DNA from: a phage
Direction: 5' to 3' (one strand)
Length of the DNA stretch: 64,000 nucleotides
Assembly (NCBI GenBank): GCA_032986305.1
Contig: GCA_032986305.1_3672.1
Shown here one piece after another: positions 59,651 through 63,954 of the stretch; positions within the stretch are counted from its first letter, which is position 1; each line of letters opens with the position of its first letter. The notes under the pieces were generated by a model that was not told the DNA's origin, made no database searches, and saw only the letters and a list, made by a program, of their open reading frames with translations. The position numbers and the translations under genes are program-made.

Positions 59651-59727
59651 TGGTCTCCACGGAGTGATTCGAACACTCGACCTCCTGATCCCAAATCAGG
59701 CGCTCTACCAAGCTGAGCTACGCGGAG
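59651..59727 (-). tRNA. tRNA-Pro (anticodon TGG)
   Basis: Manual fold: acceptor CTCCGCG/CGTGGAG, D-arm TAGCTCAGCTTGGTAGAGC, anticodon loop TTTGGGA, T-arm GAGTGTTCGAATCACTC, encoded CCA. Confidence 0.75.
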
Positions 59728-59738
59728 TATTTACTATT

Positions 59739-59813
59739 TGGTGGCCCTGGGTGGAATTGAACCACCGTCTGGCGATTATGAGTCGCTTGCTTGAACCTTC
59801 CAGCTACAGGGCC
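59739..59813 (-). tRNA. tRNA-Met (anticodon CAT; Ile-lysidine type not excluded)
   Basis: Manual fold: acceptor GGCCCTG/CAGGGCC, anticodon loop CTCATAA, T-loop GGTTCAATTCC, encoded CCA. Confidence 0.7.
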
Positions 59814-59814
59814 T

Positions 59815-59890
59815 TGGTGCTGATGGCAGGACTTGAACCTGCAACCTATTGATTACAAATCAATTGCACTACCAATTGTGCTACATCAGC
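59815..59890 (-). tRNA. tRNA-Thr (anticodon TGT)
   Basis: Manual fold: acceptor GCTGATG/CATCAGC, D-arm GCACAATTGGTAGTGC, anticodon arm ATTGA-TTTGTAA-TCAAT, T-arm GCAGGTTCAAGTCCTGC, CCA. Confidence 0.8.
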
Positions 59891-59895
59891 AAAAA

Positions 59896-59994
59896 GGTGC
59901 TAGGCGGTGGAATCGAACCACCTATGTATTCAACGACTACCTCGTCTATTTTCAGGATTAAAAATCCTCGCCCTTGCCAAAGGGCTTACCTAGC
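59896..59994 (-). tRNA. atypical tRNA-like gene (about 99 nt; canonical reading of the loop would give anticodon TTT)
   Basis: Good acceptor (GCTAGGT/GCCTAGC), D-arm (GCCC-TTTGGCAA-GGGC) and T-arm (GGTGG-TTCGATT-CCACC), but about 30 nt separate the anticodon stem from the T-arm; CCA not encoded. Confidence 0.45.
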
Positions 59995-60092
59995 TCAGTA
60001 TGTTGACCATGTTGCTAGTCGGCGATGACGACTGTAACATTTGATAATCCGGTTCTGCTTCCGGCTTTCGCTTAATTACAAGGTCAACAATG

Positions 60093-60183
60093 TGGCGGAG
60101 AGTAATGGAATCGAACCATCATCGAGTCATCCTCAATGGGACGGTTTTCAAGACCGCTTGAGCACCATTGCTCCCTACCCTCC
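60093..60183 (-). tRNA. tRNA-Ser (anticodon TGA), long variable arm
   Basis: Manual fold: acceptor GGAGGGT/ACTCTCC, anticodon arm GCGGT-CTTGAAA-ACCGT, long variable arm, T-loop TTCGATT, CCA. Confidence 0.65.
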
Positions 60184-60297
60184 TTTATAAATTATACTGA
60201 TAATGACACTGATTTTCGAGCAGTTAGTGACTAGTATAAACGACGATAAATATCAATGCCATTATCTGTATTATTTACGCATCTAAAAATATAAATT

Positions 60298-60384
60298 TGG
60301 TGGGGAGTGGTGGAGTCGAACCACCCGAGTCGCAATGACAATAGATTTACAGTCTACACCGCTACCTCTACGGGATAACTCCCC
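60298..60384 (-). tRNA. tRNA-Tyr (anticodon GTA), long variable arm
   Basis: Manual fold: acceptor GGGGAGT/ACTCCCC, anticodon arm GTAGA-CTGTAAA-TCTAT, variable arm, T-arm GGTGGTTCGACTCCACC, CCA. Confidence 0.7.
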
Positions 60385-60388
60385 AATT

Positions 60389-60463
60389 TGGCACCCCGTA
60401 CTGGACTCGAACCAGTGTCAACGGCTTAGAAGGCCGCTGCTTTATCCACTAAGCTAACAGGGC
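60389..60463 (-). tRNA. tRNA-Arg (anticodon TCT)
   Basis: Manual fold: acceptor GCCCTGT/ACGGGGT, D-arm GCTT-AGTGGATA-AAGC, anticodon arm GCGGC-CTTCTAA-GCCGT, T-arm ACTGGTTCGAGTCCAGT, CCA. Confidence 0.75.
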
Positions 60464-60559
60464 ACTGGGTGGCTTTCTTTTACACCTTAGCCGCCAGAAA
60501 AGGTGGGAGACCATGTTTACAATATTACACTGTTAAGCAAAGTTTGTCAAGAAAATATT

Positions 60560-63399: not shown

Positions 63400-63954
63400 T
63401 TACTCCCCGCTGTCAATAGCAAGACTCATTGCAATACGGTATGCCTCTTCTAATGGTAAGAGTCTCCCCCACACATCCCAACCGACATCAAACTGCCTGC
63501 CAAACAACTGCTGTGTGGTTCCGTGAGCATGACCGAACAGTTGGACTGATCCGTGAGGCTTTCTGTTCCACTTTGCAAACTGGTAATGGCTCATACAGAT
63601 CAAATTCTTGTTGTGGCGAAGCTCGTAATAATCTACAACCTCATGACCGAACTCTTTCATAATTCTGACAGTCGTCCTTGTGTCATGGTTACCACGAACA
63701 AGAATAATATGTCCGTTCAACATATTTAGAACATCTGGGAGCAATTTGTTGATATTCTTATCATTAGTGCACGCAATATCTCCCAAGTGAAACACAGTGT
63801 CTGCAGGTGACACAACAGAGTTCCACTTGGTGATGATTCCCGCATTCATACTGTCAAGATTGTGATCATACTGAGATCTGTGTTTTTGACATGAATCGAA
63901 CTCCATGACCCGCTGGTGGAGAAAGTGTGTGTCGCTTGTTACAAAGTATTTCAT
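63400..63954 (-). CDS. calcineurin-like metallophosphoesterase (Ser/Thr phosphatase-like)
   Basis: Motifs SDTHF (DxH), GDIACTND (GDxxD), VRGNHD (GNHD/E), GHAHG. Confidence 0.7.
   Translation of the reverse strand: MKYFVTSDTHFLHQRVMEFDSCQKHRSQYDHNLDSMNAGIITKWNSVVSPADTVFHLGDIACTNDKNINKLLPDVLNMLNGHIILVRGNHDTRTTVRIMKEFGHEVVDYYELRHNKNLICMSHYQFAKWNRKPHGSVQLFGHAHGTTQQLFGRQFDVGWDVWGRLLPLEEAYRIAMSLAIDSGE

Follow-up and report, generated by a model that had tools for sequence, protein, structure and literature searches.

A 64,000-nucleotide (nt) stretch of phage DNA (the window; GenBank assembly GCA_032986305.1, contig GCA_032986305.1_3672.1) carries a cluster of transfer RNA (tRNA) genes, and one member of the cluster, here called tRNA-X, does not have the structure of an ordinary tRNA. 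An earlier note made from the letters alone had left three options side by side: an insertion in a tRNA, a pseudogene, or a regulatory RNA that resembles a tRNA. The comparative data firmly support two answers. The locus is a real gene that selection has maintained, and its product is a structured RNA resembling tRNA. The family to which it belongs is a distinct one, conserved in the tRNA body and a five-way junction and not in the anticodon.

The gene is read on the minus strand, with the RNA 5' end at 59994 and its 3' end at 59896. The parts are listed in Table 1 in the order of the RNA; AA joins the acceptor stem to the D arm, and a single G joins the D arm to the anticodon-like arm. Each structural feature in the earlier note was found: the paired acceptor stem, the D arm and a T arm with the canonical TTCGATT loop, the anticodon-like loop TTTTTAA (UUUUUAA in the RNA), and a long insert before the T arm that holds the hairpin ACGA-GGTAG-TCGT. 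The distance from the anticodon stem to the T stem, put at about 30 nt in that note, is 31 nt from G42 to A72 (30 nt from A43) and consists of unpaired flanks of 8 nt and 10 nt around a 13-nt hairpin. The perfect 6-bp/3-nt hairpin AGGAUU-UUU-AAUCCU is also present, as an alternative drawing of the anticodon-like arm with a UUU triloop. This arm is 15–16 nt long in all homologs compared to 17 nt in a canonical tRNA; the window copy has 15 nt, in four Watson-Crick pairs and a loop of 7 nt, with the conserved G-G mismatch 59969/59953 at its base. Folding predicts a tRNA-Sec-like D arm with a 6-bp stem and a tetraloop, in which the two inner U-A pairs never vary among homologs; the arm can also be drawn with 4 bp and a loop of 8 nt. 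A8 A9 precede the D arm in place of U8, and A8 and U14 are found in all homologs. Read in the canonical style, these residues may form swapped A8:U14 and U15:A48 tertiary pairs. All family members share the segment AAUACAUA unchanged, which extends into the T stem by that stem's first GG; it served as a search motif.

Table 1. Coordinates of tRNA-X, of its parts (5' to 3' in the RNA) and of associated features in the window. A1 is the alignment of 27 homologs.
Feature	Position	Strand	Sequence	Remarks
Whole tRNA-like gene (tRNA-X)	59896..59994	−		99 nt counting A73 and CC
Acceptor stem, 5' strand	59988..59994	−	GCUAGGU	pairs with 59899-59905
D arm	59970..59985	−	GCCCUU-UGGC-AAGGGC	minimum-free-energy and RNAalifold folds
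Anticodon-like arm	59954..59968	−	AGGA-UUUUUAA-UCCU	UUU triplet at 59960-59962
5' junction strand	59946..59953	−	G-AAAAUAG	GAAAA invariant in family (A1 columns 43-47)
Extra (fifth) arm	59933..59945	−	ACGA-GGUAG-UCGU	hairpin in 27/27 homologs
3' junction strand	59923..59932	−	UGAAUACAUA	conserved; A1 columns 75-84 invariant
T arm	59906..59922	−	GGUGG-UUCGAUU-CCACC	5 pairs, canonical T-loop
Acceptor stem, 3' strand	59899..59905	−	GCCUAGC	7 bp, one U-G pair
Discriminator and 3' end	59896..59898	−	A73, CC	CCA incomplete; UUUUU follows
tRNA cluster housing tRNA-X	59651..60463	−		ARAGORN; Rfam
Promoter-like site, sigma-70 type	60522..60550	−	TTGACA-17-TAATAT	consensus scan; upstream of cluster
Calcineurin-like metallophosphoesterase open reading frame	63400..63954	−		runs beyond window end

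The comparison with tRNA clusters of related phages that the earlier note had proposed shows that the element is conserved. A BLAST search with the window copy matched 124 records in Vequintavirus and Avunavirus, plus one Seunavirus record at 74% identity, and ~120 Vequintavirus records retain the element. With the Seunavirus homolog as the query, 189 records were recovered across the Vequintavirinae in Vequintavirus, Avunavirus, Seunavirus, Mydovirus, Henunavirus, and unclassified relatives, from hosts in Escherichia, Salmonella, Klebsiella, Cronobacter, Enterobacter, Proteus, and Erwinia. Scans with the invariant motif AATACATAGGNGGTTNGATTCC brought in further viral and metagenomic contigs. 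Twenty-seven distinct sequences were gathered into alignment A1, and covariance model R1 was built from them. Family members score 104–116 bits with this model, one per genome; the window copy scores 106.6 bits, the complete JeffSchatz genome has a single match, and the highest score of an ordinary tRNA is 26 bits, for a class II Ser tRNA. A wider search with diverged queries found no homolog outside Vequintavirinae-like phages. The family motif was not found in 185,579 bacterial and archaeal GTDB species genomes, and 5,426 complete E. coli genomes held nothing similar to the element; these empty searches reject a copied host or prophage tRNA as its source. These data show that tRNA-X is a single-copy family, present once per genome throughout the subfamily Vequintavirinae. 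The window itself is an rV5-like Vequintavirus, and its cluster is 99% identical to those of Escherichia phages phiWec191, FFH2, and rV5. At least 18 unannotated 'Campylobacter phage' records in the series MG065635-MG065690 are 98–99% identical to rV5-like coliphages over the cluster, and their 'Campylobacter' host labels look doubtful.

Selection on the structure is evident in alignment A1. With the cloverleaf and one tertiary pair imposed on the 27 homologs, 97.7% of cells are paired, and both sides have changed at 11 of the 23 pairs. None of 500 shuffles matched the observed pairing values, slid controls pair at 33–48%, and the unpaired cells come only from a difference in alignment register in the anticodon-like arm. 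All seven acceptor pairs and all five T-stem pairs are 100% paired, with compensatory double changes at four and one of them, respectively. The D stem has three covarying pairs (GCCC/GGGC, GACC/GGUC, GCGG/CCGC), and the innermost pair of the anticodon stem is A-U, C-G, or U-A depending on the clade. The extra arm extends from 4 bp in the window copy to ~8 bp elsewhere; its sequences are unrelated between clades, compensatory changes occur inside each clade, and its single-stranded flanks GAAAA and AAUACAUAGG are invariant. The tertiary pair joins G19, the second G of the UGGC loop, to C56 of the T-loop. It is GC in 17 sequences and UA in the other 10, where UGGC/UUCGAUU has become UGUC/UUAGAUU. 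This covariation argues for a true L-shaped fold, although the switch is probably one evolutionary event and counts once. Clade structure dominates the all-against-all mutual information. RNAalifold independently gives matching acceptor, D, anticodon, and T helices, and each of the 27 homologs folds singly into the same five-helix shape.

The same signal is present in the window's own lineage. Vequintavirus and Avunavirus differ in their stems by two A-U to G-C replacements, one at acceptor pair 4:69 and one in the extra arm, and both are compensatory doubles. The sole stem changes within Vequintavirus are G-C/G-U and U-G/U-A. The compensatory doubles rule out simple decay in this lineage. Of the three options in the earlier note, the pseudogene is contradicted by stems that are kept through compensatory or wobble changes across 27 distinct homologs, and the tRNA with an insertion is misleading, because the fifth arm is ancestral, has near-invariant flanks, and is found in every genus of the subfamily. 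The atypical tRNA-like RNA was the right description, and it can now be specified as a conserved family with five arms.

Alternative drawings of the RNA were considered and rejected. An 8/4 or 8/5 division between the acceptor and T stems is ruled out by an A at position 8 opposite a C. Nor can the extra hairpin be the real anticodon arm, since its loops have 5–14 nt, are unconserved, and are never 7 nt with U33. The conserved junction strands have no complementarity to one another in Vequintavirus, and an AUGU/ACAU pairing occurs only in Henunavirus-type homologs.

ARAGORN reports the element as 'tRNA-??? anticodon (atcc)' at 59896-59994 on the minus strand, the same boundaries as in the earlier note, and offers no standard tRNA with other boundaries; homologs in other genera gave no ARAGORN call outside Vequintavirus. 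Rfam was scanned with default settings over the whole window and with permissive settings over the cluster and four relatives. With the permissive filters only, the element reaches 31.0 bits (E = 3.2e-4 over a 1.2-kb stretch) under the tRNA model RF00005, whose gathering score is 29; the match is absent from the default gathering run of the whole window. The best clan match in the four relatives is tRNA-Sec, at 39.0, 27.0, 23.2, and 22.8 bits (gathering score 47). No ribozyme, intron, transfer-messenger RNA (tmRNA), or small RNA family was matched in these scans, only tRNA and tRNA-Sec; matches to YrlA, Plastid-ycf2, and permuted-tmRNA were dismissed as low-scoring overlaps with ordinary tRNAs. 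Minimum-free-energy folding of the element gives its five helices and no others (−37 kcal/mol; z = −3.8 compared to shuffles). GenBank records label the element tRNA-Lys, tRNA-OTHER, tRNA-TERM, tRNA-???(atcc), or nothing at all; the tRNA-Lys label comes from the BASEL and CPT annotators, who used tRNAscan-SE. The rV5 genome paper lists six tRNAs and omits the element (PMC3606486), and our literature searches found no paper that describes it.

The anticodon-like loop and the 3' end differ between clades. In Vequintavirus the loop is UUUUUAA and A73 is followed by CCU or CAU. In Avunavirus the loop is UUUAUAA (UAU), position 73 is U or C, and ACA follows. The Seunavirus/Mydovirus-type homologs have a 6-nt loop (CAUCCA, CCACCA, CCGCCA, CUUCCA, CCUCCA, or CAGCCA) in a 16-nt arm, and Henunavirus and three metagenomic phages have the loop [C/U]AUCAAA (UCA with A33); both of these groups end in U73-CCA, as do the homologs outside Vequintavirus and Avunavirus generally. 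At position 33 many homologs have A or C, and U33 is missing from two of the four clades. The earlier note's reading of the loop as UUU, for Lys, thus holds in Vequintavirus and fails in orthologs with UAU, N-N-C-C-A, or UCA. The 6-nt loops vary only at their second and third positions, which correspond to positions 33 and 34, and C32, C35, C36, and A37 are fixed. The variable positions coincide with the site at which PrrC-type nucleases cut, and C35/C36 with U73, G1:C72, and C2:G71 in this clade resemble the E. coli GlyRS identity set. CCA is encoded by each of the six canonical tRNAs in the window's cluster; the element alone has A-CC-U.

Tentatively, and at somewhat less than an even chance, we favor for the element the role of a tRNA-Lys(UUU)-type adaptor of unconventional form, a spare that tRNA-cleaving nucleases of the host would miss. 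The E. coli LysRS identity set consists of U34/U35/U36 and A73, and the match of the window copy's loop and A73 to this set makes such an adaptor the most likely working model. Two further considerations favor it: no second Lys tRNA exists in the genus, and context from the genome and from the literature points to conflict over tRNA-Lys. Vequintavirus keeps six ordinary tRNAs, none of them Lys, and retains tRNA-X alongside. The cluster order is Arg(UCU), Tyr(GUA), Ser(UGA), X, Thr(UGU), Met/Ile2(CAU), and Pro(UGG) according to ARAGORN, and the rV5 record annotates the equivalent of the upstream promoter-like site as P(tRNA). The element would be co-transcribed with the cluster and released, like its neighbors, by RNase P and 3' trimming. 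The spacing fits such processing: tRNA-Thr(UGU) begins 5 nt after the end of the element, which lies on its upstream side, and in other genera the element begins 2–6 nt past the preceding tRNA. The host CCA-adding enzyme would then complete the encoded CC to CCA, and the anticodon-type arm would present U33-UUU-A37-A38, together with discriminator A73, to LysRS. The non-standard D arm, the short G-G-flanked anticodon stem, and the fifth arm may make the RNA a poor substrate for PrrC and PARIS/AriB, and as a spare it would keep AAA/AAG decoding going during infection.

The PARIS nuclease AriB cleaves E. coli tRNA-Lys(UUU), its first-described target, and tRNA-Thr(UGU), a prime target, with tRNA-Pro(UGG) seen only as a probable minor product (PMC12409363). 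The cut falls at position 40/41 in the anticodon stem, and experiments with phage-host chimeric tRNAs and an AlphaFold 3 model suggest a contact between AriB and the D-loop (PMC12409363, PMC11464382). Phage T5 escapes PARIS through variant tRNAs, and its variant tRNA-Lys(UUU) is a proven counter (PMC11464382, PMC12409363). The cluster neighbors Thr(UGU) and Pro(UGG), the latter two genes beyond Thr and downstream of the element, are of a prime and a possible minor AriB target type, respectively, and were counted in favor of the adaptor. In the annotated relative JeffSchatz, the metallophosphoesterase gene stands beside a P-loop polynucleotide kinase and a T4 Rnl1-type RNA ligase (PF09511), 3.5–5 kb from the cluster, and the ligase is conserved in other genera at 44–48% amino-acid identity. 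Ligase, kinase, and phosphoesterase together are the classical healing-and-sealing answer to cleavage of tRNA-Lys by PrrC (PMC10264068). The small open reading frames near the element had no informative Pfam matches. A precedent in favor of the adaptor is that irregular tRNAs of the tRNA-Sec-like kind can take part in E. coli translation with full activity (PMC5389517).

Several observations weigh against a Lys adaptor. The loop differs between orthologs (UAU; 6-nt C-N-N-C-C-A; [C/U]AUCAAA with A33), which places the family-wide constraint in the elbow and core and not in the anticodon. The arm has 15–16 nt instead of 17 with just four Watson-Crick pairs, and thermodynamics in Vequintavirus prefers the 6-bp/3-nt hairpin, which buries the anticodon. 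The element is the sole gene of the cluster without an encoded CCA; its 3' tail drifts in Vequintavirus and Avunavirus (CCU, CAU, ACA), and the Avunavirus discriminator varies (U or C). Escherichia phage V18 has lost the gene: a deletion (L007 1471-1543) leaves a fusion whose 5' portion comes from tRNA-Tyr and whose 3' portion comes from the element, and also removes tRNA-Ser; only the Arg, Thr, and Met tRNAs remain, which indicates that tRNA-X is dispensable at least in the laboratory. Our literature searches found no expression, charging, or nuclease data on the element.

The strongest rival, which we regard as nearly as probable as the adaptor, is a non-decoding tRNA mimic. The tRNA shape would be kept for processing and for tRNA-binding factors, and the RNA would never enter the ribosome; its two variable arms could be specificity modules that make it a decoy or sponge for toxins and nucleases, a regulator, or the partner of a phage protein. 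In favor of this reading, conservation is highest in the D/T elbow, GAAAA, and AAUACAUAGG and not in the anticodon loop, whose size and sequence shift by clade with the loss of U33 from two of four. The six Seunavirus/Mydovirus loop variants differ only at the equivalents of 33/34, where PrrC-type nucleases cut, the neighboring tRNA in those clusters also has defective or variable anticodon loops, and Vequintavirus has lost the encoded CCA. Features of a chargeable tRNA argue in the other direction. The Vequintavirus loop has a perfect tRNA-Lys format (U33, UUU, A37, A38) with A73, and elsewhere U73-CCA in most clades and C35, C36 in the Seunavirus/Mydovirus type resemble aminoacylation identity elements, amounting to a full GlyRS set in the latter and to a CysRS-like U73 with C35-A36 in the UCA clade. 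No partner protein or target of a mimic has so far been identified. There are precedents: many allo-tRNA(UAU) species are inactive in translation (PMC5389517), the non-translating pseudo-tRNA tRNA-Other of B. cereus has a physiological role (PMC3399842), and the AriB study raises competitive inhibition of AriB by viral tRNAs as a possibility (PMC12409363).

A more specific form of this idea, which we hold to be unlikely, is a programmable mimic in place of an adaptor. A constant tRNA body (minihelix, elbow, and the invariant core of the five-way junction) would carry two fast-evolving arms. The RNA would bait, block, or report on host immune effectors that target tRNA, among them PrrC, PARIS, RloC, or nucleases of the ApeA type, possibly acting jointly with the Rnl1/kinase/phosphoesterase set. 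The anticodon-like arm would be retuned to the host range: UUU for E. coli, NNCCA for Salmonella, Klebsiella, and Cronobacter, and UCA for Erwinia. In a variant of this reading the RNA would be charged but used off the ribosome.

The remaining explanations, namely a recoding tRNA, a decaying pseudogene, and a removable insert, are less likely than the Lys adaptor and the mimic. We think it improbable that tRNA-X is a mis-acylating tRNA of the allo-tRNA type, in which the extra arm would recruit SerRS or another synthetase whatever the anticodon; such an RNA would insert a non-cognate residue at AAA/AAG in the window phage and would act as an opal (UCA) or 8-nt-loop frameshift suppressor in relatives. 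SerRS wants G73 and a properly oriented long arm, whereas the window copy has A73 and an extra arm of only 4 bp between long unpaired flanks. The structure is 7/5 and not 8/4, 9/3, or 8/5, and proteome-wide misreading of Lys as Ser would be toxic. No sign of recoding turned up, no search aimed at it having been made. Observations in the relatives speak for recoding: tRNA-Sec is their best Rfam clan match, the Henunavirus and metagenomic versions combine UCA with U73 like selC* tRNA-Cys(UCA), and two of the metagenomic relatives, L039 and L048, also carry a CUA-anticodon tRNA. The tRNA-Sec-like D arm, long extra arm, and diverse anticodons of the family are likewise those of allo-tRNAs (PMC5389517).

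A decaying tRNA pseudogene that merely still looks folded is very improbable and is largely refuted by the covariation. Decay could account for the lost CCA, for the drifting discriminator and tail and the shortened extra arm in Vequintavirus and Avunavirus, for the V18 deletion, and for a gene that annotators ignore or name inconsistently. It does not fit the absence of any stem-breaking substitution in the 27 distinct homologs, the compensatory nature of the Vequintavirus/Avunavirus stem differences, or the retention of the gene in ~120 Vequintavirus records despite a tRNA set pared to six. The least probable explanation is an intron-like segment in the variable region, whose removal and resealing by the phage kinase, phosphoesterase, and Rnl1 ligase would yield a ~76-nt tRNA: a complete RNA healing-and-sealing set is encoded near the cluster and a variable-length hairpin lies between invariant strands that could mark cleavage sites, but there is no bulge-helix-bulge motif or group I intron feature, Rfam matches tRNA only, no enzyme is known as a candidate for the splicing cut, excision would leave the anticodon arm too short, and the hairpin stem is itself selected for pairing.

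Other features of the clusters were noted in the course of this work. In the window, 59896-59924 on the minus strand comprises the T arm and the 3' acceptor strand followed by CCUUUUU; together these match an intrinsic-terminator pattern directly before tRNA-Thr, in Vequintavirus only. The 98-nt spacer between tRNA-Ser and the element (59995-60092, minus strand) has a closed multi-hairpin fold (z = −2.6) in which an 8-bp helix, UGUUGACC/GGUCAACA, closes around three hairpins; it may represent a further small RNA that is processed, or the relic of a tRNA. Between tRNA-Tyr and tRNA-Ser, a 114-nt spacer (60184-60297, minus strand) forms a long imperfect hairpin (z = −4.5, no shuffle equally stable) that overlaps a promoter-like TCGAAA-17-TATAAT at 60219-60191. 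The tRNA with a CAU anticodon at 59739-59813 (minus strand) is annotated as tRNA-Met in rV5 and as tRNA-Ile for codon ATA, implying lysidine, in a BASEL record.

The clusters of relatives hold additional irregular genes. In Seunavirus/Mydovirus the tRNA between Thr(UGU) and the element is irregular too, with U1-A72 (L006 1419-1494, L012 530-605, L015 532-605, L017 531-605, and L022 529-605). Its loop varies by phage (ACGAUUC, AAGAUUC, a 5-nt ACGAU, or Arg GCG), and ARAGORN called one copy tRNA-???(ga); it is a second fast-changing tRNA-like gene beside the element. The CUA-anticodon tRNA of the metagenomic relatives with a UCA-loop element, designated 'Pyl' by ARAGORN, lies at L039 7862-7934 and L048 2791-2865, and each of these clusters contains two stop-codon-type anticodons (UCA, CUA). 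An Arg(UCU)-like tRNA is called by ARAGORN in TH18 (L005 1498-1574), and no call is made in Av-05 (L004 1499-1583), where the region resembles a tRNA whose D arm is disturbed or that has taken up an insertion. Further degenerate tRNA-like stretches occur in the clusters.

Phage tRNA genes have recently been recast as counter-defense tools against tRNA-cutting bacterial immune nucleases, and tRNA-X is a conserved aberrant gene in well-studied, tractable phages, among them rV5 and about 12 BASEL phages that grow on E. coli K-12. Should it prove to be a working adaptor, its five-way junction, 15-nt anticodon arm, and A8/U14 would widen the structural limits of E. coli translation, and orthogonal tRNAs could be built on a new scaffold. 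As a decoy or regulator it would represent a new class of phage anti-defense RNA. The annotation of ~190 phage records could be made consistent in either event.

Comparison with known RNAs places the family apart from each of them. With the canonical tRNA (RF00005) it shares the 7-bp acceptor stem, the 5-bp T stem, and the 7-nt loop of GTTCGAWTC type. It departs in the anticodon arm (canonically a 5-bp stem and 7-nt loop, 17 nt in all, with U33 and a purine at 37), in the variable region (4–5 nt in class I; a 10–24-nt arm with short flanks in class II), and in U8 and A14. The UUU in a U33...A37 loop and the A73 of tRNA-Lys(UUU) are found in Vequintavirus only, and orthologs do not keep the anticodon. 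A fifth helix in the same place, between the anticodon and T arms, is also seen in class II tRNAs (Ser, Leu, Tyr), which are the next-best matches of the family model in the window (Ser 26.3, Tyr 25.0 bits). Their arms are flanked by 1–3 unpaired nt compared to an invariant 8 and 10 nt here, the D arm and the features at positions 8/14 differ, and the gap in the family model is 80 bits. The stable RNAs C and D of phage T4 (species 1 and 2), whose function is unknown, are co-transcribed and processed with a phage tRNA cluster, as tRNA-X would be. The tRNA-Lys(UUU) of phage T5 is also a phage UUU tRNA, and its departures from the host tRNA prevent cleavage; phage Thr(UGU) is needed as well to bypass PARIS, and tRNA-X adjoins a phage Thr(UGU) (PMC11464382, PMC12409363). 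The T5 tRNA is a canonical 76-nt cloverleaf with few substitutions and an experimentally shown function, whereas tRNA-X is aberrant and known from sequence. The tRNA-Other of B. cereus is a tRNA-like gene that predictors label 'Other'; it acts outside translation and is physiologically active, but it is chromosomal and has no sequence or architectural relationship to the element (PMC3399842).

The closest resemblances are to RNAs of the tRNA-Sec type. Bacterial tRNA-Sec (RF01852) has the 6-bp D stem and 4-nt loop that are predicted for tRNA-X and an extra arm, and the Henunavirus loop CAUCAAA resembles its CUUCAAA. The branch of the element has 12 bp (7/5) compared to 13 bp (8/5), G73 is lacking, and scores stay below 47; the window copy has UUU and A73 instead of UCA, and U73 occurs elsewhere in the family. 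The allo-tRNAs and selC* tRNA-Cys (Mukai et al. 2017, PMC5389517) share the long D stem with a tetraloop, which is predicted for tRNA-X, the long extra arm, and a wide range of anticodons, UAU and UCA among them; at position 73, where allo-tRNAs have G or U, most clades of this family have U and the window copy has A. The allo-tRNAs came to light as sub-threshold matches to a tRNA-Sec model, and some were proposed to be non-translating and to have five-stem junctions (PMC5389517). They have 8/4 or 9/3 acceptor/T branches and longer anticodon stems and are mostly bacterial, whereas this family is 7/5 in 27 of 27 homologs, has a 15–16-nt anticodon arm and an extra arm with long invariant single-stranded flanks, and is confined to one phage subfamily. 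The tRNA-Sec-like allo-tRNAs and selC* tRNAs are the nearest known kind, and tRNA-X is not filed among them because it lacks the 8/4 or 9/3 branch.

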